A stretch of DNA of 24,000 bases from an uncultured Pseudomonadota bacterium (GTDB taxonomy: Bacteria > Pseudomonadota > Gammaproteobacteria > Burkholderiales > Rhodocyclaceae): the NCBI GenBank assembly GCA_903870055.1, contig CAIQBG010000016.1, positions 52,709 through 76,708 of the forward strand, read 5' to 3'. A program made the translations under genes and the position numbers. Shown one piece after another: positions 2,173-24,000 of the stretch. The notes beneath the pieces were generated by a model. The model saw only the letters and a list, made by a program, of their open reading frames with translations, did no database searches and had not been told where the DNA came from. How positions within the stretch are numbered: the stretch's first letter is position 1; every line of letters begins with the position of its first letter.

Positions 2173-2831
2173 GCGCAAGCCGTGCGGCAGAAGCTGCCCA
2201 GCTGATCGCTGGCGCAGCCAAAATGGGCGTGGCGCTGACGGAAGCGCAGAGCGAGAAGCTGCTCGATTATCTGGATCTGTTGCAGAAGTGGAATAAGGCT
2301 TACAACTTAACGGCGGTGCGCGAACGGCCGGCGATGCTGACGCAACATTTGCTGGATTCGCTGTCGATCGTGCCGCATCTGCCGCCTGGCGATTTGCTGG
2401 ATGTGGGTAGTGGCGGTGGTTTGCCGGGGATTCCGCTGGCCATTCTGCAGCCGGAGCGCTCCATTACGCTGGTGGATACCGTCGGGAAAAAGGTGGCGTT
2501 TCTCAAGCAGGCAGCGATGACGCTGGGTTTGAAGAACCTGCAGGCAGTTTCAACCCGGATTGAATCCTGGGTGCCGCCCGCCGAACATACGGGCGGTTTT
2601 GCATTGATTACAGCGCGAGCTTATGCCACTTTGCAGACTTTGGTGGGGCAAACACAGCGACTTTTAGCCCCAAATGGGGGGTGGTACGCTATGAAAGGTG
2701 TCATTCCGGCCGCCGAAATGGCAGAATTAGCCTCTGATGTCTCTGTACGTGCAGTCATTCCGCTTGATGTACCTGATTTGGGTGCAGAAAGACATCTGAT
2801 TCTGCTGGCTCCGGTCGGCTCCGGTTCTTAA
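2169..2831 (+). CDS. rsmG: 16S rRNA (guanine527-N7)-methyltransferase RsmG (GidB)
   Basis: The ORF track gives 2037..2831, but its first 44 codons overlap mnmG. An in-frame GTG at 2169 overlaps the mnmG stop (GTGA) and gives 220 aa. Motifs [13 protein letters not shown] and SAM-binding [17 protein letters not shown]. The start choice is less certain than the gene call (ATG at 2223 is the alternative). Confidence 0.9.
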
Positions 2832-2848
2832 GGTTAAAAAGGCGCAGC

Positions 2849-3625
2849 ATGCGTATTCTGGCAATTACCAATCAAAAAGGCGGCGTGGGTAAAACCACTT
2901 CGGCCGTCAATCTGAGCGCAGCGCTGGCCCACCTGAAACAACGAGTGCTGCTGATTGACCTGGATCCGCAAGGCAATGCCACCACCGGTTGCGGCATCGT
3001 GAAGACCGATGCGCTGCCGACGGTATATCAATTGCTGCTGGGCGACACGACGCTGGCTAACGCCATTCAGAAAACCGAATTCGGCTTCGATATCCTGCCG
3101 GCCAACCGTGAACTGGCGGGCGCCGAAATTGAACTGATTGAGCTAGATGGTCGCGAACAGAAATTGAAAGAGGCGTTGGCTACGGTGACCGATCGTTACG
3201 ATTACGTGCTGATCGATTGCCCGCCGGCGCTGAATATGCTGACAGTGAACGCCCTGGTGGCTTCACAGTCGGTGATGATTCCGATGCAGTGCGAGTACTA
3301 CGCGCTGGAAGGTTTGTCGGACCTGGTGGAAACGCTGCGCAAGGTGCGTGGCAACCTGAATCCGGATCTGGAAATCGAAGGTTTGCTGCGCACCATGTAC
3401 AACGCGCAGAGCACGCTAACGCAGCAGGTGTCGGATGAGCTGACCAGCCACTTTGGCGATAAGGTTTACAGCACCATCATTCCACGAAATGTGCGTCTGG
3501 CCGAAGCGCCGTCGCACGGCAAGCCGGCGATGGCTTACGATGCCGCCTCCAAGGGCGCGCAAGCCTACACGGCCCTGGCCGAAGAGTTGCTGGGCCGTCA
3601 TGGCAAAGCAACGGCCACGAAATAA
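2849..3625 (+). CDS. parA: Chromosome partitioning ATPase ParA/Soj
   Basis: 258-aa ORF. Deviant Walker A of the ParA family (ITNQKGGVGKTTSAVNL) and Walker B-like YVLIDCPP. Lies directly downstream of rsmG. Confidence 0.95.
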   Translation: MRILAITNQKGGVGKTTSAVNLSAALAHLKQRVLLIDLDPQGNATTGCGIVKTDALPTVYQLLLGDTTLANAIQKTEFGFDILPANRELAGAEIELIELDGREQKLKEALATVTDRYDYVLIDCPPALNMLTVNALVASQSVMIPMQCEYYALEGLSDLVETLRKVRGNLNPDLEIEGLLRTMYNAQSTLTQQVSDELTSHFGDKVYSTIIPRNVRLAEAPSHGKPAMAYDAASKGAQAYTALAEELLGRHGKATATK

Positions 3626-13386: not shown

Positions 13387-13479
13387 AGCGCCATGATAAC
13401 AAATTGAGCCCCAAGCAAGGCAGAGACGGAATGAGTCTTTGCTCAGGTTGAGCATAGGGGCATTAATCGAGAGGCGGCT

Positions 13480-15588
13480 ATGGAAAAAACGGTCAAAAAT
13501 CTACCAGAAATCGGGATCCTATGGGCCTTGCGTTGCTTAGTGCGCCTGGATGGCTATAAGCAATTCCTTGCAGAAGATGGTTTTATGGACGATGCACTCG
13601 CCCGTACATTAGGTCTTGGAACCTATATTCCTGAAACTGAGGCAGAAGGGAATATGTTCAACCGACACAAAATGCTTTCGAAGCTGCGCTTCAAATTGAA
13701 ACAGATGGAAGCAGATACAGAACACATCCGCGTGCCGGAGGATTTGGCCGAAAATATTAGCCGCTTACAGTCAATGACGCGGATGTCGGATACTGAATGC
13801 CGTATTCTTGAGTTCGCGATTATGTCGCACGGTATGCGTGACATTGAGCGTATTACTGAACTACCCCCTTGTATTCGTCCGGCCGAAGTCGCTAAACATA
13901 TTGCGATTTATCTGGGCACGCCCGTTAACGACGTGCTCAAAGCGGTTAATCGTCAGTCACTGATGGTCCGCTCAGGTTTGTTCTGCATCTCGGGGAATGA
14001 AACTTTTATGCCCTCACTTTGCGAGCATATGAAGCTGGTGTCATATACGTTTGCCGAACAAATGCTCTCGGCCAATTGTGATTTTGAGCAGATTTTTCAT
14101 GACATGGTTTCGCCAGGCAGAAAATCAACACTGACAATTAATGACTTCTCCCATCTTAAGGATCAAGTAGAGATTCTTTGCCAATACTTATCCCATGCTG
14201 TGAAAGAAAAGAAGCAAGGTGCCAACGTTTTAATCTGGGGAAAGCCTGGTGTTGGCAAGACTGCGTTGGCACAGGTGGTTGCCGATGTTGTTGGTTTGCC
14301 GCTCTATGAAATTTCCAGCGAGGGGCAGGACGGTATGCCTTTGACGGGTGATGAGCGCTTCCGCGCCTACACGGCTGCGCAGTCTTTCTTGTGCCAGAAA
14401 GATAGCCTCTTTGTATTTGATGAGGTGGAGGATGTTTTTAGTGGAAACCGCGTTTTGACCAACCTGTTGGGTGGGCGTGATCGTAATGTGAACGCCGGGC
14501 TGAATAAAGCCTGGATCAACAATACGCTGGAGAGCAATTCGGTCCCGACGATTTGGATCAGCAACTCTGTCCACGGAACCATTGATCCGGCGCACGCCCG
14601 CCGCTTCTCTCTGATAATCGAAATGCCGATTGCGCCACAAGCGCAGCGCCGTCGAATGATCATGGATATGGGTCAGGGTTTGCTCAATGAGGAAACCGTT
14701 AACTTGCTTAGCCAATCTGAGCAACTTGCACCGGCAGTTGTTAGTCGTGCGATTGATGTCATTAAAACGATAGAGCCAGATATGGCGCAAAAGAAAGCAT
14801 CGGCATGGGCTAAGTTGATGGTTAATGCCACCTTGGAAGCTCAGTCACACCAATCGTTGCCTGCAAACGCCTCGAAGAAATTGATGGACTATGATCCGAT
14901 ATTTGTGAATGCCAATTACGATCTTGCCGAGGTGGCCAAAGGCCTGGCACGCGCCAACCAGGGTCGTTTATTGCTCATGGGGCCGCCTGGCTGCGGCAAG
15001 AGCGGTTATGCCGCTTGGTTAGCCCATCATTTAGGTAAACCATTGCATGCAAAAAAAGGCTCAGATTTTCTGGGGGCTTATGTAGGAGAGTCCGAAAAGA
15101 ATATTGCCAAGGCATTCAAAGAGGCAATGGAGGCAGACGCGATTTTACTAATTGACGAGGTGGACTCGTTCCTGGCCAAGCGTAGCAATGCCACACATAA
15201 CTGGGAAGTCTCTTTAGTGAATCAGGTGCTCGTCGAGATGTCGGAGTTTAATGGCTACCTGGTTGCAACGACAAACATCAATGCGGACCAGTTGGATCCT
15301 GCAGCGTTGCGTCGCTTTGATTTGAAAGCCAACTTTGAATACCTGCGCCAGGAGCAGGTGATTGCCATGGCTCAAAAACACTGCGCCACCTTGGGTCTTA
15401 GTGCGTTAGAGACAAACCATCAACAAGCATTGACTCAGCTTCACAAGCTGACGCCCGGTGACTTTGCTGTGATTGAGAGTCAGGCGAAATTCATTGAAAT
15501 TACTTCGACGGATAAGTTAATTGAAGCGCTAACCCGTGAGCATAGCGTCAAAGCCGCGACTAATATGGCTATGGGGTTTATTCATTAG
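13480..15588 (+). CDS. Tandem (D1-D2) classical-clade AAA+ ATPase with an uncharacterised ~240-aa N-terminal domain
   Basis: 702-aa ORF with RBS GAGAGG. D1 has Walker A GKPGVGKT (aa 254-261, nt 14239-14262) and Walker B LFVFDEVED. D2 has Walker A GPPGCGKS (aa 501-508, nt 14980-15003), Walker B ILLIDEVDS, GESEKNIAKAF and PAALRRFD. No TM segment and no protease domain. Confidence 0.85.
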   Translation: MEKTVKNLPEIGILWALRCLVRLDGYKQFLAEDGFMDDALARTLGLGTYIPETEAEGNMFNRHKMLSKLRFKLKQMEADTEHIRVPEDLAENISRLQSMTRMSDTECRILEFAIMSHGMRDIERITELPPCIRPAEVAKHIAIYLGTPVNDVLKAVNRQSLMVRSGLFCISGNETFMPSLCEHMKLVSYTFAEQMLSANCDFEQIFHDMVSPGRKSTLTINDFSHLKDQVEILCQYLSHAVKEKKQGANVLIWGKPGVGKTALAQVVADVVGLPLYEISSEGQDGMPLTGDERFRAYTAAQSFLCQKDSLFVFDEVEDVFSGNRVLTNLLGGRDRNVNAGLNKAWINNTLESNSVPTIWISNSVHGTIDPAHARRFSLIIEMPIAPQAQRRRMIMDMGQGLLNEETVNLLSQSEQLAPAVVSRAIDVIKTIEPDMAQKKASAWAKLMVNATLEAQSHQSLPANASKKLMDYDPIFVNANYDLAEVAKGLARANQGRLLLMGPPGCGKSGYAAWLAHHLGKPLHAKKGSDFLGAYVGESEKNIAKAFKEAMEADAILLIDEVDSFLAKRSNATHNWEVSLVNQVLVEMSEFNGYLVATTNINADQLDPAALRRFDLKANFEYLRQEQVIAMAQKHCATLGLSALETNHQQALTQLHKLTPGDFAVIESQAKFIEITSTDKLIEALTREHSVKAATNMAMGFIH

Positions 15589-16208
15589 CGGTGGCTTTGG
15601 AGCAAGCATAGCGATTTAGCAATTTTCCAGGCAAGGATTGCATCAGTAGGGTCGCCGAGTGTGTCCAGCACGAAGTTGTGTCGTCCATCGCTGCCCACGA
15701 TCCACAAACATTCACCTCCGGCAGCATGAAAGCCTGTTTGGGAGTCGGACGTGCTACAAGAGATCTTTGCTTTGTGGCCAAACCATCCGATACCACTGAT
15801 TGCTTGTGCAGGCCCATTACCAAACCTGCCAATGTTGGGACGAACCACCCCCTTGTCTTTAACAAAGATGCTTTCTTTGTGGTTGGCAGCATTAAAATCG
15901 CCTCGGGCGACTTTAATATGCACGACGTAATTGCTAGGTTCGAGCATTCGTTTGCCGTTAAATAAAAGATCCGTGTTGTTTTGACTGAGCAACCTCTTCG
16001 TGTGTTGTGCCGAAGGTTTAGTCAGGACATAAATGTCCTGACCTTCAGTTTTGATTAGAAATTTAGGCGGATAGCAAAACGAGACCCCAAGTTGTAGATT
16101 GCTGAAGCGTTGCCAGTTTTTTCCGTAAAAACTGCAGTCAGTTGCATTTGCAGTTATGGGTAGTAGCCCCACTAAAACTATTGCTAATGTCTTAAGCCGC
16201 AGATTCAT
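15585..16208 (-). CDS. Secreted protein of unknown function (Sec signal peptide, six Cys in the mature part)
   Basis: 207-aa ORF. Signal peptide MNLRLKTLAIVLVGLLPITANA/TD. Its ATG lies 17 nt inside the 3' end of the upstream FtsH-like gene, and its stop overlaps the stop of the convergent AAA+ gene. Confidence 0.6.
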   Translation of the reverse strand: MNLRLKTLAIVLVGLLPITANATDCSFYGKNWQRFSNLQLGVSFCYPPKFLIKTEGQDIYVLTKPSAQHTKRLLSQNNTDLLFNGKRMLEPSNYVVHIKVARGDFNAANHKESIFVKDKGVVRPNIGRFGNGPAQAISGIGWFGHKAKISCSTSDSQTGFHAAGGECLWIVGSDGRHNFVLDTLGDPTDAILAWKIAKSLCLLQSHR

Positions 16209-17571
16209 TTAGGACACCATATTCAATCGCCATGGATTTGAGATGGCCTTTGTCCAGAATCTTTTGCTTAACAAGACGATCAGCGATTGCCTCAAGAAAA
16301 ACACGGTGAGCCCGAAGTTGGTCAAGAACCACATCGTACTGTCGTGAAAGAAACAAACGGGCAGCATTCTCAATACGATGTTTTTCAGTATCAGAAACAT
16401 CGGTGCCTATTTTCAGTAAAAGATTAGATCCAGCGGTAGATTCATCTTCCATTGTTGGGCTAATGCCATAACGACCAATCAGATCTTTGGCGATGTCTGT
16501 GGCATGACGGAGATCACTGCGAGCGCTAGTGACAGACATATCTTCAATCCCAACAGTTAGTTGCTCGGCAGCACGACCTGCGAGCAGCACCCTCACAAGG
16601 TGGCGTTTGTATTTGTAAATGCCAATGGAAGGTATTGATGCCAGAAATTCATAAGATGCTGAAACCTGCCCCAAAGTGCCTATGGATGGAACAATCCCGG
16701 CGTAATCCGGAATGTTCATGCCGGATGAGTCAACTATGCTGACGAGTGCGTGCCCAGCCTCATGCAGTGCAATACTGTGTCTGAACTCTTTAGACGTGTT
16801 ATTAGGTACGTATTCACCCGTACCGTGTAGTGCAAAGTTAATCAGATCGCCGAACTCCACCTTGCGTTTTTCACGGTAAGCCAGCCGCTTTAGTGCGATG
16901 ATAATCAGGCCTACACGGCGCTCATCGGCAGCTTCGCAATCTAGAACCTGTCCGATTGGCTTAGGATCTGACAGCAAAGAGCTGCCACAAATATCAAGGG
17001 GCAACATCTCGACAAAAGCGAGCCCACGGTCGTGTAGCGATATGTCATCTACAAAGAAACGACGATCAAACGCCCCAGGGCTGCGCAGATCTTCTACTAA
17101 GTCGCACGGATCGTCACCGTAAGTAACAAATACCAGGTGTTTATCCGCAGGAATTTGAGCCATGAGTTCGGCAAATTTTTTATGGAAGGCCTGGATCTCA
17201 TCGGCATTCGAATGATCTTTGGTATCGGCAGACCAGATACCCAATGGCATCATGACTAGCGTGGGATCGAGAATCTCCGTGAATCCATTGGCAAAGAATT
17301 CAAAAATTTTATCTGCTGCCAATTCCCTTACTTGATAGCCGGATGCTTGTGCAATTTGATGAATGATTTTTTTGCTGTACTCCTTGTTGTCGTTCACAAT
17401 CATCGCAGCACGCCCAACAATTTCCCAGTCAATGGTTTGAGGTACACAGTTACTCGCCATATTGGCGAGTTCAATTGCCCAGGCTTTAATGGGGCGAAAC
17501 CGATCCGGGTTGCTCCACCCGGTTACCATGGGTTCGCTGGCAACCCGCATGTTTTGAAATGTTGATTTCAT
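16192..17571 (-). CDS. Soluble FtsH-like protein: degenerate (Walker A/B-less) AAA module fused to an intact M41 zinc-peptidase domain
   Basis: 459-aa ORF with strong RBS GGAGAAGG. M41 motif ALHEAGHAL (nt 16750-16764), third-ligand Glu in GRAAEQL, and AAA remnant LRSPGAFDRRFFV (compare [12 protein letters not shown] of FtsH). MIVNDNKEYSKK and LVMMPLGI occupy the Walker A and Walker B positions. No TM helices. Confidence 0.85.
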   Translation of the reverse strand: MKSTFQNMRVASEPMVTGWSNPDRFRPIKAWAIELANMASNCVPQTIDWEIVGRAAMIVNDNKEYSKKIIHQIAQASGYQVRELAADKIFEFFANGFTEILDPTLVMMPLGIWSADTKDHSNADEIQAFHKKFAELMAQIPADKHLVFVTYGDDPCDLVEDLRSPGAFDRRFFVDDISLHDRGLAFVEMLPLDICGSSLLSDPKPIGQVLDCEAADERRVGLIIIALKRLAYREKRKVEFGDLINFALHGTGEYVPNNTSKEFRHSIALHEAGHALVSIVDSSGMNIPDYAGIVPSIGTLGQVSASYEFLASIPSIGIYKYKRHLVRVLLAGRAAEQLTVGIEDMSVTSARSDLRHATDIAKDLIGRYGISPTMEDESTAGSNLLLKIGTDVSDTEKHRIENAARLFLSRQYDVVLDQLRAHRVFLEAIADRLVKQKILDKGHLKSMAIEYGVLNESAA

Positions 17572-17644
17572 AGACCTTCTCCAAGAATTACAGATAATCT
17601 AAGTAGGACTAAAGACGCTTGGTGTCTTAAGACATCGCACTAGA

Positions 17645-17980
17645 CTAGTGAAAACTGCCTTGAAAGCAGTGGCGCAGCTCGTGCCCTAAAACATGCATCG
17701 TTGTCTGACGTGCCGTAATGATGGTGCAGCTGTTTTTGTCCCAAAAGGAGCAGGCATCGACGGCGTAGCCAAAGCCTCCGAGTTTTCGTTGGCGACTTTC
17801 GGCTTCGCACGCCTTCTGTACGTTATCGGTGAAGCGCCAGGCAATCTGCTTGGAATCTGCGTGGCGTTCCGTAGCGCTAAACTTTGTTTCTGGATTGCGC
17901 CAAGTCGGCTCGCTTCCCCATGACGGTATTCCTGTAAAAACGAGACCTGCGATTAGGGGCCAATTAAGAAGCGTTTTCAT
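17645..17980 (-). CDS. Small secreted four-Cys protein with C-terminal HExxHxxxGxxH (putative minimal zincin), paralogue 1
   Basis: 111-aa ORF. Signal peptide MKTLLNWPLIAGLVFTGIPSWG/S. The C-terminus GHELRHCFQGSFH (nt 17648-17683) ends the protein. About 28 of 59 aligned C-terminal positions are identical to the 125-aa ORF at 20002..20379 (hand alignment). Confidence 0.6.
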   Translation of the reverse strand: MKTLLNWPLIAGLVFTGIPSWGSEPTWRNPETKFSATERHADSKQIAWRFTDNVQKACEAESRQRKLGGFGYAVDACSFWDKNSCTIITARQTTMHVLGHELRHCFQGSFH

Positions 17981-18020
17981 GTCGGGTGATTTGCTTTAGA
18001 AAATAAGATAAGACCATCGG

Positions 18021-18043
18021 GTGAAGACAAATCTAGTCTTCAC
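18021..18043 (-). other. Perfect 8-bp inverted repeat (hairpin) in the lipoprotein/mini-zincin intergenic spacer
   Basis: GTGAAGAC (18021-18028), 7-nt loop, GTCTTCAC (18036-18043). It starts 7 nt after the lipoprotein stop on the minus strand. No adjacent U-run, so it is not a canonical intrinsic terminator. Confidence 0.35.
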
Positions 18044-18049
18044 GCGTTG

Positions 18050-19108
18050 TCAGTTAAATTTCAAGCGGAACTTCAGGTCATATCCTTCCGTGACCCAGTT
18101 GCTAGCAAAGTTTAGGTTTCCTTGGACATTAATTGCTTTTTCAGCAACGAGATCGAATTTCGATTTAGGACGATTCTGATCATCAACCCAGGGGGTTTTG
18201 GTATCTACATGCTGGTTTAGTGTGACAACGCCATCGCGAACCGGAAATCCAGCTACCGTTGTCCCGTCTCGGTTCATGATCGCAACGATTGCTGCTGCAT
18301 TAATCTGTTCATAGACTTCATCGGCCGCCCACCCTTGGTAACAATTAACTTCGCCTTTCCCGGCAAAGCAAAGGCTGAATGAATCGCCAGGGTTAGGTGG
18401 CGCCGTTGTATTGCTTTTGTTTTCGATAAAGGGCGCCACGATAATCGCTACTGGTATAAGCACTGGTAAAGCCGCTAATACAAGGAAACCCTTTCCAAGC
18501 TCGGCCCAGTTGTTTTTTTCGTGGTAGCTGTGCTTTGTGCCGTGCACCGTCAGAAAAGATTCAATGTCTGTCAGCCATTTGGGGCTGGGTATAATTTTTG
18601 TGAATTGGACTGCCATTCCAACGCTGCCATCCGCATTTACTATGGGATCGATGGTCCGTGATTCAACCTGGATCATTTCAGGTCGACGAACAAGTTTACG
18701 AAGCAGCTCTCGCGTACTGATTTGCTTGTTGAGATGGCGCTCGACTACGCCTAGGTCAATATTTTTCTCGGTGTTGACGACGATGCTTTTGGCATCAGGA
18801 GAAACCTTGGCTTCTATAGAAACTGTACAAGGCGATCCTCCCGAGTTTGATAACACTTTGTAGCTTTGCACAATGCCACCACTGTATTCATCAATAGACT
18901 CAGCGTATTCGTTGGCATTATTCAGGCTGCGCCGGCTGCTCAAAAAGCTGCCCTTGTAGTCTTCAGTCGCCTTAACTTTGGCCTGTTGTAATGCTTCTGT
19001 GCAATTGCGTCCGTAACCATCTGCTCGGAATCCCTGAGCGTCCGGTTTAACTGAAGCGCAGGCAGAAAGCACTAGCACTAACAGCCACGGTCCGATCTTT
19101 TTGATCAT
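18050..19108 (-). CDS. Lipoprotein with an internal transmembrane helix, function unknown
   Basis: The start is taken at ATG 19108 (RBS GAGGAG 7 nt upstream) rather than the ORF-track 19186. Signal/lipobox MIKKIGPWLLVLVLSAC, and a hydrophobic 22-mer GFLVLAALPVLIPVAIIVAPFI about 205 residues into the mature protein. Confidence 0.75.
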   Translation of the reverse strand: MIKKIGPWLLVLVLSACASVKPDAQGFRADGYGRNCTEALQQAKVKATEDYKGSFLSSRRSLNNANEYAESIDEYSGGIVQSYKVLSNSGGSPCTVSIEAKVSPDAKSIVVNTEKNIDLGVVERHLNKQISTRELLRKLVRRPEMIQVESRTIDPIVNADGSVGMAVQFTKIIPSPKWLTDIESFLTVHGTKHSYHEKNNWAELGKGFLVLAALPVLIPVAIIVAPFIENKSNTTAPPNPGDSFSLCFAGKGEVNCYQGWAADEVYEQINAAAIVAIMNRDGTTVAGFPVRDGVVTLNQHVDTKTPWVDDQNRPKSKFDLVAEKAINVQGNLNFASNWVTEGYDLKFRLKFN

Positions 19109-19254
19109 GATGGGTCTCCTCGATGAGAGAACAATTAGATCAAGGGGTCGAGACAATATATGTCTTAAGCAACCTCTATCCTGCATAGCACTTCCGGATT
19201 ACACCGGAGGAGCCATCAGCCATATTCATATCTCTTAAACTAAGGAATCTCTTC

Positions 19255-20001
19255 GTGAACACAGCAGAATTCTTAGGCGCACTACGTGAGCCGCTCCCAA
19301 ATTGGCTAAAAACTTATAGGCTAGGGAATAGGATCACGTTAGATGATTTTTTTGATTCGCGTACGGTGTATTACCCAGGGTCAGGCCATGACGGGCAGCC
19401 AGTTGCTTTATTTGGATCCTCAGGCGCAGCTCATTGTTTTGTATTCGCCGACTATGGCGTTAGCCAAGCTGAGATTACGGTTGATCTACAGAGTCGCTCC
19501 AATTCATTTCGAGGTTACAAGTCCTTAGTTCGTATTCACCTGAGCCAAGACGATTTAACACCAAACGGTTGGGCGGCACATATTCAACAACATGAAATCA
19601 CGAATAAATGCTTTATCCAGGGCTTTGTGACGCCGTTCGGATTTTTGGAAATCCTCGAACGTTTCAAAAATCTGGATGATACCCATGGGCCTAAAAGGCT
19701 CGCGGTTCTATTTCTTGGCGCCGATGGCATCGCAGCATATGACGCTATTTTTTGCCAAGGTACCCACAAGCCACCATTTGCTGTTGTCATTCAAGAGCAC
19801 GGGTTTGGGGGTAACTACGATGCCTTCGGCAGGGGAAGTCTTTTAGAACTGGTTGCTATGCGTGCTGGCAGTTTGCCAGCACTACAACTGGTTTCTCAAA
19901 ATGGTCAATGCTGGGAGGGCTACGAAGCAGTTCCAGATCTTCTTCCAACGTATGGGGGTGAGCACTCTGTGGAACGCAGGCTCTGCCGGCGTCTCATGTA
20001 A
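19255..20001 (+). CDS. Hypothetical cytoplasmic protein (possible Rossmann-like fold)
   Basis: 248-aa ORF with a GTG start and RBS TAAGGAA 8 nt upstream. No signal peptide. Glycine-rich YYPGSGHDG followed by FVFADYG and LFLGADG weakly resembles beta-strand/loop motifs of nucleotide- or SAM-binding folds. Confidence 0.55.
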   Translation: MNTAEFLGALREPLPNWLKTYRLGNRITLDDFFDSRTVYYPGSGHDGQPVALFGSSGAAHCFVFADYGVSQAEITVDLQSRSNSFRGYKSLVRIHLSQDDLTPNGWAAHIQQHEITNKCFIQGFVTPFGFLEILERFKNLDDTHGPKRLAVLFLGADGIAAYDAIFCQGTHKPPFAVVIQEHGFGGNYDAFGRGSLLELVAMRAGSLPALQLVSQNGQCWEGYEAVPDLLPTYGGEHSVERRLCRRLM

Positions 20002-20379
20002 TTATTTATGATAATTGCCCTGCATACAGTGCCTGATTTCGTGTCCGATCGTATGGTAATTGGCAACTGTAGCTAGTACAACTGTACATTTATTGTTGAT
20101 AGATGCACTATCCCAGAATGAGCATGCTTCGACTGAGGCCTTAAAGCCTCCAAATCCACGCTTCTTGCTCTCTACATCACAAACGGCACGAACATCTTTG
20201 ACGATAACGAATGTCACTTGAATCTTATCGGAATTAAGTTTCGTTAGATTAAACTCTTCATGCGGATTTTCACTTGATGTAAATATTTCTCCATTCTTAC
20301 CGGAGCCAGCAACAGAGAGTTGTGCTATCAATAAGAGCGATAGGCATATTGCTAGCTTGGGATTTACCAGTAAAGCCAT
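20002..20379 (-). CDS. Small secreted four-Cys protein with C-terminal HExxHxxxGxxH (putative minimal zincin), paralogue 2
   Basis: 125-aa ORF. Signal peptide MALLVNPKLAICLSLLLIAQLSVA/GSG. The C-terminus GHEIRHCMQGNYHK carries the motif (nt 20008-20043). Its ATG is 3 nt after the stop of the upstream nuclease gene, with AAGGA embedded in that gene's last codons. Confidence 0.65.
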   Translation of the reverse strand: MALLVNPKLAICLSLLLIAQLSVAGSGKNGEIFTSSENPHEEFNLTKLNSDKIQVTFVIVKDVRAVCDVESKKRGFGGFKASVEACSFWDSASINNKCTVVLATVANYHTIGHEIRHCMQGNYHK

Positions 20380-20382
20380 ACT

Positions 20383-21843
20383 TTAGTCCTTTGCCCAGGC
20401 GTTCCATGTCTGATAAATCATAACCATCGCTAAAGTATCCAGCTCGCAGTACCTGAGCAAAGCCTTCCTGGTTGATTCTCTTAGTAGATCCGTCACATCT
20501 TCGAATTGCATACGTGCATAAGCAGTCGTGGCAGCACCTCCTTCGCGAATATCGTCACCCGCAACCGCATCCTCTCCAACGAGTTCCGATTGTTCAATGT
20601 CAGCAAAAATAGGGGGCAACAGATCATACGGATTCTTTGCACCATCTCCATCGGCAACCCACCAAGTCATCCCTTGTGCACCATCAATTGGGAAATTTTT
20701 GCTGGAAATACCGTTCGGTGCACCATAAACCGGTTGGCTATAAACACTTCTTAGCCATTCAGAAGATTTCATGACCGCCGGGAGAATCACTTTGATGCTG
20801 GTGCGTCCCTTGGTATCTGGATGGAAAAAGCACTGTCCAGCCAACACATTTAGATCGACCATCGTGCGAACGCCACGAACCACTGTTTCTTTACCGACTT
20901 TTCTGGTCGTTAATGATTCCGCAAACTTGATTAATTCATCCGCATCCGAAGGGGCTTTGCCAATTGCCTTAAGCTCCAGAAGGTCAGCGCGCAGACCGTT
21001 GAGCATGGTGTTTTCATAGTGACTCCACATGAACACGGTGCCTTTTTCCTGCCCGGGAGTACAAAGTGCCTTTTTGAGGGCCCGCAGGAAATCGATGGAT
21101 GGGTCAATACCAGGTGATAGATCTAGGAATTCGTTGGCATGTGTCACAGTGCCATTCGCGTCCAGCACATGGTGCGAAAACTGGAATGCAACCTGCGAAT
21201 AGGGCCGTTTGCCAGATACGAATGGCAATGCTGGTCGCGAGCCTTCAAAGTCGATGAAATGTAACGGGAAGGTGAATTCCGCTGCGGCTTGATGCCATAC
21301 AGCCTTGTCAAACTCGAATGGTTTTGCCTGACCCCACTCACCAAAAACTTGTAAATATTGGCGATAAGCCCGACTCATGCCTTGTCCCGCCTTGGTCTCT
21401 TCGAAATCTTCTTCTTCCAAAGTAGATAACCACAGGCCGCGGGATTTAATTAACTTATCGATCTGGCCTTTGACTGGGTAATACAATTCTGTGATCGGTC
21501 GATTTTTCTGGATATCCGCATATGAGACATGCGTGGCCTCAGCCCAGCATTCATGAAATCCACTTTTATGCTGAGCGTCGGGGTTGGCCGAATAAAACTC
21601 ACAAGTTCGGCAATGCTTACCGACAACGGCTTTGATTCGCTTTTTCTCAGCATAGGCATTAGCCCAATCCACGGCTGCCGCTTTAAAAAAACCCTCACCT
21701 CCCGGAAAGTGGATTGTTCCCGAAATAATTTGATCTACGAAACTGCTCACATCGACCGATTTAAGAAGTGGATTCCCAACCGAAGAAAGATTAGTTCCTG
21801 GCACGGTTACAGCCCAGCTTCGCTGATTGTCGCCATTGTTCAT
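20383..21843 (-). CDS. DUF2779-type protein, C-terminal part: Cys cluster plus DEDD/RNase H-like exonuclease-type domain
   Basis: 486-aa ORF. Contains HCRTCEF...HECW (three Cys). HFIDFEGSRPALPFVSGKRPYSQVAFQFSHH, GRTSIKVILPAV and LLRYCELDTLAMV match my memory of DUF2779 hallmarks and of ExoI (DxE) and ExoIII (Yx3D) motifs. It overlaps the upstream ORF by 53 nt in another frame. Confidence 0.7.
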   Translation of the reverse strand: MNNGDNQRSWAVTVPGTNLSSVGNPLLKSVDVSSFVDQIISGTIHFPGGEGFFKAAAVDWANAYAEKKRIKAVVGKHCRTCEFYSANPDAQHKSGFHECWAEATHVSYADIQKNRPITELYYPVKGQIDKLIKSRGLWLSTLEEEDFEETKAGQGMSRAYRQYLQVFGEWGQAKPFEFDKAVWHQAAAEFTFPLHFIDFEGSRPALPFVSGKRPYSQVAFQFSHHVLDANGTVTHANEFLDLSPGIDPSIDFLRALKKALCTPGQEKGTVFMWSHYENTMLNGLRADLLELKAIGKAPSDADELIKFAESLTTRKVGKETVVRGVRTMVDLNVLAGQCFFHPDTKGRTSIKVILPAVMKSSEWLRSVYSQPVYGAPNGISSKNFPIDGAQGMTWWVADGDGAKNPYDLLPPIFADIEQSELVGEDAVAGDDIREGGAATTAYARMQFEDVTDLLRESTRKALLRYCELDTLAMVMIYQTWNAWAKD

Positions 21844-22222
21844 CTGCTGTACCGCTCAAAGAATCGTAAGACTTTGACTTGACTTCGATCAATTCAATTT
21901 TCTTACCACGCTTTCGGATCACATCAATTCTGGCAACCCAGTGGCCATATTGAACCGTGCCCTCGAAAATTGTGACATCGGTCTGCTGAAGTAGTTGTTT
22001 GGTGCGTGCAATCTGATCTACCTGATCGCGATCGGTTACCTCGATACCTTCTGGATAGAGAAGCTTGGCCAGTTCACCGACCTGAAAGCCCCCATCGGCG
22101 AGTGCTTTTAGAAAGTCATTGCTTTTCTTGGTGTCTACGTAGTCTGGTTTGCCCACATAATCCAGCTTTGTTGGGCACTCGAGGGCTGTCTTAAAACGAC
22201 TTTTGCTCAGGTAGCGGCTCAT
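21791..22222 (-). CDS. PD-(D/E)XK (Cas4/RecB-like) nuclease core, N-terminal part of a split DUF2779-family gene
   Basis: The start is taken at ATG 22222 (MSRYLSKSRFKTALECPTKL, the typical DUF2779-protein N-terminus; purine-rich AAGAGA upstream). Nuclease core ARIDVIRKRGKKIELIEVKSKS. The ORF stops 27 codons after the EVK motif. This may be a frameshifted pseudogene fragment. Confidence 0.6.
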   Translation of the reverse strand: MSRYLSKSRFKTALECPTKLDYVGKPDYVDTKKSNDFLKALADGGFQVGELAKLLYPEGIEVTDRDQVDQIARTKQLLQQTDVTIFEGTVQYGHWVARIDVIRKRGKKIELIEVKSKSYDSLSGTADEQWRQSAKLGCNRARN

Positions 22223-22235
22223 TATTTCTCTTGCC

Positions 22236-22892
22236 TCACCAAAGCACAATTCGGTCATCTGGGCTAAGCAAATCACGCCCTGCAGTACCGTTTAGTAGAT
22301 TAATGTGTGAAGCGTTTTTGCCTGGCCAAAGTTTGGCAACAATTGCATCAAGGATGCCAGCCTGATTGCCAATGATTGCCGATTCAAAGCGCTCAAGATT
22401 AGCCTTGGGCTGAATCACGGTGCTGTTAAATTTGGAGACGGCAACACGCGCATCTTTAAGTAGATCACCCGGGCCGCCAAGTGCAGTGAATCGTTCAGTT
22501 GCAAAGTCGCGCCAGTTTTCAGGATGGTGTACGCCCCCAATAGTGTCGGCGTTCGAACCGACATGGCTCCCCGTTGCTTTTACACGGTGTTTCTTCAAGC
22601 GATTCAATACGCCTTCACTTGCTTTCGAATCATTTGACGCAATGCCTACATATAGGGTCGGTTTCGGAATGTCTACTGCGAAAAGATAGATCCCATACCA
22701 GGCTTCAAGTGCTTGAGCATCGGGTGTTACGGGCTCGAGAGACTTGCTCCATGTCGTGTAGGTGGCGCGATCGCGCACGGGTGTCCAGCCTTGCGCGGTC
22801 TTTTGATGAGACAAAGGACCCCAAGGCGCCAGATCAGCTGGAACCGTAAAGTGCGTTGACACATCAAGGGGGAGATTGAAATGTAGTTCCAT
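22236..22892 (-). CDS. GIY-YIG superfamily nuclease-like protein
   Basis: 218-aa ORF with RBS AAGGAA. GIY (aa 67-69), 11 residues, then YVG (aa 81-83), followed by NRLKKH (compare KRWKRH of I-TevI), and later a candidate catalytic Glu/Asn in LERFESAIIGN. Confidence 0.55.
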   Translation of the reverse strand: MELHFNLPLDVSTHFTVPADLAPWGPLSHQKTAQGWTPVRDRATYTTWSKSLEPVTPDAQALEAWYGIYLFAVDIPKPTLYVGIASNDSKASEGVLNRLKKHRVKATGSHVGSNADTIGGVHHPENWRDFATERFTALGGPGDLLKDARVAVSKFNSTVIQPKANLERFESAIIGNQAGILDAIVAKLWPGKNASHINLLNGTAGRDLLSPDDRIVLW

Positions 22893-22917
22893 CGCTATTC
22901 CTTAGAATCGGAGAGGT

Positions 22918-24000
22918 TTACTTGCTGTACATGCTGGCCGCTTTTTTCAAGTCTTCGGCGACGCGATTTTTGAGTACTTTGGGGCCAATAACGCGGACAT
23001 GATTGGCCATGCTGAGGATCCAGTAGACCAATTCTTCGCGGAGGGTTGTGGTCAGGCTCAGTTCGTAGCCATCCTTAACCTTTTTGGCAGTTTGGCTTTC
23101 ATCCAGGGGTGTTTCAGATATCCAGCCATAAGTGCCTTCGTCTACCCAGAGCTTAAGGTTAATAGGGTTGCCTAGGATGTCCTCATCAAATACCGGGTAC
23201 GCCAGTCCCTTCTTAAGGAAGGCGTCTAGATCAAAATCCTCGCCGCCTTTGACCGCAGCATAGTCAACAGAGTGCACGTCTTTGACTTTCTTGATGCGCG
23301 GGATTGTAAAAAAAACAGGAGCGGTCCCGTGCCCACGTTTGATACCAATCAGATAGCGGCGCACGCCGCGCTGGACGAGACCCAATGGTTTAACGACAAA
23401 CTCTTGGTCGCGGTACTGAATTTCAATCAACTTTTCCTGATACAAGGCCTCGTGAACCTGCTTCTCGACTTCAGGAGAGCTCTCGGGTGCTACAAAGCCG
23501 ACAGTTTCCGAAAGAATGGCGACCTTACTGAGCCACTTCTCTTCGGCCGCCAACGCCGCTTTGTTTGGGATTTTTTTGCCTAAATTTTTGTCTGCTTGGC
23601 TCTTCAGCAGTTCATTCTTATGAATGGCAGTAAATAGGGGGGCGAGCTCATCTACGAGAGCCCTAGGGACAAGACCAAGGCCAACTTTCTGCAGCACACC
23701 AAGTGCAACTGATTGGGCTGAGGTCAGCGCATTAACCATTAAGCCTGAACCGCCCTCTTTCCAGCTATAGGCGTTTTCACGATAGGCATGGCCTTTGTCA
23801 TCTTCGGCAAGCACCTTCTTGGATTCGATAGCGCCAGTAATCTGCTTAAGATGACGGAGATCGCGGGCAATCATTTGACGAAATCCAACGTCTTGGGCAT
23901 TTTTCTTTTTATCGGCAACACGGCAGGCGATCATTTTGACCGTCATCGGTTTGTCACTGCCTTGTAGGGTAGAGAAAACCGCCCAGATACGTTTGTTCAT
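22918..24000 (-). CDS. WYL-domain transcriptional regulator (BrxR/CapW/PafBC-like: wHTH - WYL - WCX)
   Basis: 360-aa ORF whose ATG is the last triplet of the window, so it could extend further upstream. N-terminal HTH (MTVKMIACRV...RQMIARDLRHLK). WYL-type segment LIEIQYRDQEFVVKPLGLVQRGVRRYLIGIKRGHGTAPVFFTIPRIKKV. C-terminal WCX-like ELVYWILSMANHVRVIGPKVLKNRVAEDLKKA. Confidence 0.8.
   Translation of the reverse strand: MNKRIWAVFSTLQGSDKPMTVKMIACRVADKKKNAQDVGFRQMIARDLRHLKQITGAIESKKVLAEDDKGHAYRENAYSWKEGGSGLMVNALTSAQSVALGVLQKVGLGLVPRALVDELAPLFTAIHKNELLKSQADKNLGKKIPNKAALAAEEKWLSKVAILSETVGFVAPESSPEVEKQVHEALYQEKLIEIQYRDQEFVVKPLGLVQRGVRRYLIGIKRGHGTAPVFFTIPRIKKVKDVHSVDYAAVKGGEDFDLDAFLKKGLAYPVFDEDILGNPINLKLWVDEGTYGWISETPLDESQTAKKVKDGYELSLTTTLREELVYWILSMANHVRVIGPKVLKNRVAEDLKKAASMYSK

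Follow-up and report, generated by a model that had tools for sequence, protein, structure and literature searches.

Small exported proteins of freshwater phages and genomic islands that end at an HExxHxxxGxxH motif, a family of candidate minimal zincins

We have analyzed two small genes, referred to here as P1 and P2, located in a stretch of 24,000 nucleotides (the window, contig CAIQBG010000016.1, positions 52,709 to 76,708) from an uncultured bacterium of the Rhodocyclaceae. Both code for proteins with a signal peptide, four cysteines and, at the very end of the chain, an HExxHxxxGxxH motif. They represent a family that is real, large and under strong constraint, and the gene is carried mainly by phages, mostly from freshwater, and by genomic islands. 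The interpretation that we prefer, to which we give close to even odds (about 0.5), is that these are Sec-exported minimal zinc hydrolases, stapled by disulfides, that would act in the envelope of the host as products of an accessory gene of phages and islands.

Both open reading frames (ORFs) are on the minus strand, and the original prediction of two small paralogous genes coding for 111 and 125 amino acids (aa) was correct. P1 (17645 to 17980, stop codon included) was taken from the ORF list, has 58 close homologues and scores 140 bits against the family profile (E 6e-43). P2 (20002 to 20379), also in the ORF list, scores 120 bits and its product has the C-terminal end HEIRHCMQGNYHK. When aligned by BLASTP the two proteins share 43 of 112 residues (38%, E 2e-29) over nearly their full length, a similarity that is far above chance and that, judging from the alignment, identifies them as paralogues. 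The claim that their N-terminal regions are unrelated has to be abandoned, the mature N-termini being homologous as well, with an N-P-x-x-x-F pattern that is conserved family-wide (P30 in 73% and F34 in 81% of the members). A six-frame search with the family profile detected P1 and P2 as the only copies in the window. In related contigs each of them is orthologous to one copy, with identities of 71% for P1 and 65% for P2, and the duplication is therefore old. The P2 subfamily has a hairpin between the second and third strands that is 4 residues longer, and its nearest relatives are the second copies found in four closely related loci (L001-L004) and the island copies of L009, L011 and L012.

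The P1 precursor starts with a predicted Sec signal peptide, MKTLLNWPLIAGLVFTGIPSWG (residues 1-22, 17915 to 17980, minus strand), read from the sequence together with its presumed cleavage site. The mature domain, delimited by the AlphaFold2 model and by conservation, comprises the remaining 89 aa (residues 23-111, 17648 to 17914, minus strand) with Cys at positions 58, 77, 85 and 105. The C-terminal motif of P1, H100-E-L-R-H104-C105-F-Q-G108-S-F-H111 (17648 to 17683, minus strand), is followed directly by the stop codon. That of P2, H113-E-I-R-H117-C118-M-Q-G-N-Y-H124 (20008 to 20043, minus strand), is followed by one Lys and then the stop. The chains thus end as ...GHELRHCFQGSFH and ...GHEIRHCMQGNYHK, respectively. 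The third His of P1 is located at +11 from the first (H100-E101-x-x-H104-C105-x-x-G108-x-x-H111), just as anticipated.

Homologues of P1 in a database of 90%-identity clusters numbered 58, all of them of 84-126 aa, free of Pfam domains and named only 'hypothetical protein'. An exhaustive profile search that covered 1.84 billion representative proteins retrieved 472 clusters (50% identity) at E <= 1e-3, 233 of them at E <= 1e-10, and the lengths went from 69 to 168 aa among the 150 matches listed. The residues singled out in the original prediction, which had proposed to look for their retention in homologues, were found to be nearly universal in 200 diverse members. Three of the Cys (C58, C77 and C85) were conserved at 100% and C105 at 99%, while H100, E101, H104 and H111 were conserved at 98% each and the flanking glycines at 94% (G99) and 89% (G108). 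Across a set of 148 sequences C58, C77, C85, H100, E101, H104 and C105 were invariant. Among 200 family proteins bearing HExxH, the extended pattern HExxHCxxxxxH was exact in 150, and the chain ended at the third His in 117 and one residue beyond it in 44, so that the predicted termination at or one residue after this His describes 161 of them. About 2% of the members are devoid of the H/E pair or of the second His, a pattern that fits an enzyme family in which a few proteins are inactive. Export is equally general, as predicted from the two window copies: 285 of 288 family members start with a hydrophobic leader, and the viral ones have textbook MKK...AxA signal peptides.

In the sources and libraries that we have searched this abundant family is unnamed and belongs to the 'dark matter' of phages. 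P1 and P2 had no family match in Pfam, NCBIfam or PADLOC, and literature searches on the motif and on exported phage zincins did not retrieve a description of the family. Among the PHROGs only phrog_27783, whose function is unknown, was matched: the last 30 residues of P2, of two viral members and of a protein of a cultured phage described below aligned to it weakly (E 0.002-0.24).

The presence of two diverged copies within one island had been taken as a sign of a role of the family in the island. This could not be sustained, because the gene turned out to belong mainly to phages and mobile elements, with 386 IMG/VR viral contigs encoding a relative and lone bacterial copies in housekeeping surroundings, downstream of hslVU for instance. 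In bacteria, the family is present in metagenome-assembled genomes (MAGs) assigned to freshwater Betaproteobacteria. Besides the copies in islands like the one studied here there are solitary ones: in four MAGs, one of them assigned to Candidatus Methylopumilus, the gene is found between hslVU and genes for a zinc-ribbon protein and a short-chain dehydrogenase, and other solitary copies are located between a TctC gene and a DUF350 gene. Another copy (P0033) is accompanied by integrase, Abi_C, DprA and HNH genes in an island, and yet another (P0054) is in a phage-like contig.

Two recurrent architectures were found in the 80 viral contigs that were fetched. In the first one the small gene is alone on the opposite strand, between a replication block that includes a family-B polymerase and a second block that usually opens with the gene for a protein containing a peptidoglycan-binding domain. 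These convergent neighbors (for example L031 8295-9065, L081 8280-9155, L033 6895-8199 and L087 8318-9508) are variable, rich in Ala and Pro, and carry a peptidoglycan-binding segment (PG_binding_1, E 7e-7 in L031), with no catalytic domain or signal peptide recognised in them. In the second architecture the small gene leads an operon in which a homologue of initiation factor 1 (IF-1) comes next, and a radical SAM/SPASM cluster is divergent from it. Freshwater phage contigs such as L021-L023, L026, L047 and L091 have beside the small gene a methyltransferase gene, clusters of three to five genes for radical SAM/SPASM proteins and the gene for the IF-1 homologue, of 72 aa and eIF-1a fold. A further protein of 222 aa was found in 26 loci (cluster c9, e.g., L024 9198-9863), encoded three or four genes downstream of the small gene. 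It has an HExxH motif of its own (VVHEFKHQRQ), did not match any Pfam or PHROG family and, from its motif, may represent in these phages a further zincin-like family that has gone unrecognised.

Among cultured phages we found no clear member. A tblastn search with three family sequences gave a single match, 16 residues long, to Alteromonas phage vB_AmeM_PT11-V22 (L104, MN877442.1). The gene concerned, ORF25 (2728-3051), codes for a predicted lipoprotein of 107 aa that ends in TLGHELMHCLYGNYHK and keeps only the Cys of strand 3 and the one after the second His. It sits between the genes for the tail protein gp24 and the receptor-binding protein gp26. The latter function was verified experimentally in the paper describing the phage (PMC7289586), where ORF25 is not discussed. 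By its sequence, V22 ORF25 could be distantly related to the family, and together with the weak matches to phrog_27783, which it shares, it hints at a wider superfamily in cultured phages.

The structural models are consistent with a zincin-like domain. Full-length P1 was modeled with a predicted local distance difference test (pLDDT) of 82, and the mature 89-aa domain (AlphaFold2 model mca24e227ff1a, built on the 148-sequence alignment) with a mean pLDDT of 96.0 and a predicted template modeling score of 0.86. In precursor numbering, the model has a strand at 45-51, a helix at 54-64, strands at 76-80 and 84-90 and a last helix at 95-107, which carries the HExxH and after which a tail of four residues ends at H111. 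As modeled, this strand-helix-strand-strand-helix order is that of the upper subdomain of zincins (a strand, the backing helix, strands including the edge one, and the active-site helix), with the HExxH located on the active-site helix and its His, Glu and His conserved. Covariation, weak at an effective number of sequences of about 200, placed strand 1 beside strand 3 (W48-T89, rank 2). Strand 2 would therefore be the edge strand, as in zincins. The same analysis put both helices on the sheet (W48-F106 and A57-I88) and linked the N-terminal segment with the beginning of the active-site helix. In the BFVD library of viral structures two members of the family were matched (E 2e-11 and 8e-3), and in the weak tail that followed (E 0.4-2.5, template modeling (TM) scores of 0.26-0.42) 7 of the top 50 had IrrE, SprT-like or PolyVal metallopeptidase annotations. 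This enrichment, although no proof, lends modest support to a zincin-like core, the weak matches of a few members to Reprolysin_3 in Pfam point the same way, and on the models membership of the zincin fold in a broad sense is plausible.

We have compared the family with the smallest zincins. The 'mini-zincin' Acel_2062 of 113 aa, without Met-turn, has been described as the minimum known zincin domain, and a three-stranded mixed sheet as the minimal scaffold (PMC3890501). The mature proteins described here, of about 85-89 aa, are below that size, so they would indeed stand at the size limit of minimal zincins, as had been suggested. With these M94 mini-zincins (Acel_2062 or DUF1025, Zincin_1; structures 3E11 and 2EJQ) they share, as modeled, a single domain of a three-stranded sheet plus helices, an HExxH with the motif of a third ligand (here a putative one) near the C-terminus and the lack of a Met-turn, and in both groups activity is unproven. 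However, M94 proteins have about 110-113 aa, are cytoplasmic and dimeric, and their HExxHxxGxxD motif is followed by a further C-terminal helix and an aromatic residue, whereas the present family is exported, has four Cys and stops at the His at +11, its last residue. Among the Pfam families listed for P1, P2 and the 148 members, M94/DUF1025 did not appear, and neither 3E11 nor 2EJQ was among the top 50 Foldseek matches in the PDB.

Metzincins such as snapalysin (M7), reprolysin (M12B) and archaemetzincin (M54) are similar in having three His, a turn after the active-site helix mediated by Gly (presumed for our family) and secretion, and Reprolysin_3 is the Pfam model with the largest number of matching members. 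Yet their Gly is at +7 and their third ligand at +10 (HExxHxxGxxH/D), instead of +8 and +11, and they possess the Met-turn and the C-terminal subdomain that are missing here. Snapalysin, with about 130 aa, is also much larger. The minigluzincins (M95: proabylysin, projannalysin and selecase) and the WLM or SprT-like small zincins, very small too at about 105-120 aa, share the strand-helix-strand-strand-active-site-helix core, and a weak Foldseek likeness to phage SprT-like and IrrE proteins (TM 0.36-0.42) was found. In contrast to our family, their third ligand (Glu or His) is carried by an additional helix or lies behind it, their lower subdomain is helical, and they are cytoplasmic and without the four Cys. 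Nor was there a sequence-profile match to them. The 'glutamate helix' of M95 was looked for and is not there, since neither helix nor residue extends beyond H111 and a third-ligand Glu is absent. DUF4157 (PF13699), usually the N-terminal module of larger proteins, spans about 80 aa and is predicted to have its elements in the same order, and its motif LLAHELTHVVQQ is close to LGHELRHCFQG of P1, both with a Gln three residues past the second His, but the third His, the Cys pattern and the signal peptide are all absent from it. Going by motifs and profiles, the family is most like a mini-zincin and yet falls outside metzincins, M94/DUF1025, minigluzincins and DUF4157. The model looks like the smallest zinc-protease core yet seen, an exported, presumably disulfide-bearing 'half-zincin' about 20% smaller than the smallest zincin described.

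According to the interpretation that we favor, P1 and P2 would be single domains of about 85-100 residues corresponding to the zincin upper subdomain alone, i.e., a three-stranded sheet, the backing helix and the HExxH helix. A putative zinc ion would be held by H100, H104 and the C-terminal H111, with G108 letting the chain turn back as the Gly of the metzincin motif does, and E101 would act as the general base. The four Cys would form two disulfides in the periplasm that staple the two helices to the sheet. The likeliest pairs would be C58-C77 and C85-C105, as suggested by V22 ORF25, which retains just the equivalents of C85 and C105. These bonds could stand in for the stabilizing lower subdomain and Met-turn, while the conserved N-terminal segment probably packs near the start of the active-site helix. 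The site of action would be the periplasm or the outside of the cell and the target an envelope protein or a peptide of the peptidoglycan. For phages, a plausible role of such an independently transcribed accessory gene is to modify the envelope or the receptor of the infected cell, i.e., superinfection exclusion, and the island copies in the window would be acquired versions of it. The llp gene of phage T5 adjoins a receptor-binding gene, and cor provides another example of superinfection exclusion. A receptor- or envelope-modifying role is, by this weak analogy, a reasonable guess. The proposal can be carried further, to active zinc peptidases made of the upper subdomain only, with about 85 residues, two disulfides and the C-terminal residue as third zinc ligand, that would be the smallest autonomous HExxH metallopeptidases and would be spread by freshwater phages and islands as envelope- or receptor-modifying accessory enzymes acting in the periplasm. 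We regard this complete version as doubtful.

Several results weigh against the assignment as a zinc hydrolase or against the role proposed for it. The original prediction had seen in the sequence the strand and helix pattern of a zincin core. The order of elements and the location of the HExxH on the last helix stood up in the model, but no significant match to a solved zincin could be obtained. Foldseek comparison of both models with 350,542 PDB chains gave no match at E < 0.1 and no zincin in the top 50. The matches to small GTPases and VOC-fold proteins (E 0.1-0.7, TM <= 0.43) were dismissed as noise. Neither did any zincin model of Pfam or NCBIfam match at a meaningful E value, even with the 148 members scanned singly; Reprolysin_3, matched by more of them than any other Pfam family, appeared weakly in 6 of 148 (best E 0.042). 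Sequence searches of the PDB, either with single sequences or with the 148-sequence profile, returned nothing relevant. The kinship to DUF4157, suspected from the original prediction and from the likeness of the motifs, was rejected: hhalign gave a probability of 15% over 17 columns, around the HExxH only, in a comparison for which 319 PF13699 proteins were fetched with a consensus sequence and 54 were used in the profile. With the chain ending at or one residue after the third His in the majority of the members, there is no lower subdomain, which in all characterised zincins provides the S1' pocket and the cleft floor, so that catalysis by a monomer is not assured. The Met-turn is missing as well, since nothing follows the third His in P1 and at most one residue does in those 161 of 200 members. 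With regard to the role, all-against-all clustering of the neighbors in 17 bacterial and 80 viral loci, along the lines of the neighborhood survey that had been proposed, failed to reveal a universal neighbor or conserved partner, and there is no consistent clue to a partner or substrate. Finally, superinfection exclusion is argued from the analogy with llp and cor, and its sole local support is the location of the possible distant relative of V22 beside gp26.

Some of these same features are what would be expected of an exported protein that binds a metal or a target without catalysis, the His/Glu cluster and the Cys holding a structural or sequestered metal, and whose small domain acts through binding, e.g., to block a receptor or to inhibit an enzyme of the envelope, in the manner of the small periplasmic phage proteins Sp and Llp. 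The end of the chain at the third His, which leaves no lower subdomain or S1' pocket, and the lack of a significant structural match to active zincins agree with it. The position in phages is also moron-like, that of an independently transcribed accessory gene, and the possible relative V22 ORF25 is a lipoprotein encoded next to a receptor-binding protein gene, the typical position of receptor-blocking lipoproteins. T4 Sp, T5 Llp and Cor are small exported phage accessory proteins that act by binding, and the present family is like them in being phage-encoded, of about 80-100 aa, exported or lipid-anchored and independently expressed (a functional analogy), but they have no HExxH and homology to the family was not detected. 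What speaks for catalysis is that the Glu of the HExxH, dispensable for binding a metal, is as conserved as the His (98%), a behavior typical of catalytic bases. The glycines on either side of the motif are conserved too, and the few members that have lost H/E look like exceptions in an otherwise catalytic family. On balance, we consider a pure binding protein unlikely, while giving it more credit than any of the alternatives that follow.

A narrower version of the hydrolase interpretation would make these proteins peptidoglycan hydrolases for phage lysis or envelope remodeling, secreted peptidases of the endolysin kind that do not have proteins as substrates. They are exported into the compartment that contains peptidoglycan, and the convergent neighbor in the first viral architecture is usually peptidoglycan-binding (PG_binding_1 as given above, with related segments in clusters c31, c32, c35 and c52). 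Nevertheless, no recognisable lysis cassette with holin or spanin genes was found around the gene, the bacterial copies are in housekeeping contexts and retained in a Candidatus Methylopumilus MAG, and the small peptidoglycan peptidases known to us use LAS or M23-type motifs rather than HExxH, so that this specialization appears improbable. Much more improbable is that the small gene codes for a precursor that the neighboring radical SAM/SPASM enzymes convert into a modified, Cys-rich peptide or protein. The second viral architecture does place it divergent from genes for such enzymes and a methyltransferase, but the link is absent from the first architecture and from every bacterial locus, a protein with a Sec signal peptide and an 89-aa domain modeled with high confidence is unlike leader/core precursors, and disulfides are made after export while radical SAM enzymes reside in the cytoplasm. 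That P1 and P2 are chance ORFs with a coincidental motif, for which there is nothing but their small size, is refuted by the BLASTP similarity between them, by hundreds of homologues with the same length and end point and by the conservation of both copies as orthologous pairs in related contigs.

The base composition fits the earlier description of an island around the two genes. The guanine-plus-cytosine content, 54-60% in the adjacent gidA-par-atp region, is 45-50% in all of the window beyond about 13.4 kb (13400 to 24000). The window has no tRNA gene, and the far boundary of the island is beyond it. The neighbors in the island code for a double-AAA protein with IetA-like matches, a 459-aa M41 peptidase, a secreted protein of 207 aa, a lipoprotein, a DUF2779 protein and a WYL-WCX regulator. 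The lipoprotein gene (18050 to 19186, minus strand, lipobox LLVLVLSAC, no family assignment) is directly upstream of P1 on the same strand and is conserved only in the closely related loci L001-L004. Genes for lipoproteins adjoin the small gene in L009 and L011 too, but no homology was detected among these and the one of the window. The closely related contigs keep the arrangement of the window, both copies included, and P2-type copies are again accompanied by AAA-AAA, M41, WYL and DUF2779 genes, differently ordered, in MAGs of Burkholderiaceae, Comamonadaceae and other Burkholderiales. From this company a role in a defense system could be thought of. Many members are found elsewhere, however, and we have treated the association as co-carriage. 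In PADLOC, P1 and P2 were unmatched and only the neighboring IetA-like AAA protein and the WYL protein had matches.

The accompanying genes deserve some comments of their own. The module located at 13480 to 17571, present also in L009-L012 with its order shuffled, combines the 702-aa double-AAA protein (IetA-like in PADLOC, E 6e-35) with the M41 peptidase, which is without an AAA domain of its own, and with the WYL-WCX and DUF2779 genes. In L010 and L012 a protein that is ClpS-like by eye and a 300-aa partner are added. The set resembles an ATPase-plus-protease defense-like module that as such is outside PADLOC. The DUF2779 gene is disrupted in the window (20383 to 22276, minus strand). Compared with the intact orthologue of L001, of 684-688 aa, residues 4-137 are found at 22225-21824 and residues 200-685 at 21852-20395 in another frame, with about 62 residues missing, so this is likely a pseudogene or an assembly error. 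Between the small gene and the M41 gene, L001, L002 and L003 (8365-9696) have a 442-aa GIY-YIG (LEM-3-like) gene that is absent from the window, and a second GIY-YIG copy, of 304 aa, at the edge of the island. In two other MAGs (L009 9965-11740 and L010 9009-11027) the small gene is in a compact cluster with the genes of three more exported proteins, two lipoproteins (c29 and c30) and a Cys-rich secreted protein (c31), none of them with a family assignment and in an order that is rearranged between the two.

If the proteins of this family are active, the known size limit of zincins would be lowered from about 105-113 residues to about 85, and the lower subdomain and the Met-turn would be dispensable once disulfides stabilize the core, with a bearing on the evolution and the design of minimal metalloprotease scaffolds. 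In any case, a sizeable family of phage 'dark matter' now has a concrete and testable biochemical hypothesis attached to it. Accessory genes for superinfection exclusion and receptor masking are so far known mainly from binding proteins. An exported phage enzyme working on the envelope of the host, if true, would add an enzymatic mechanism to them.

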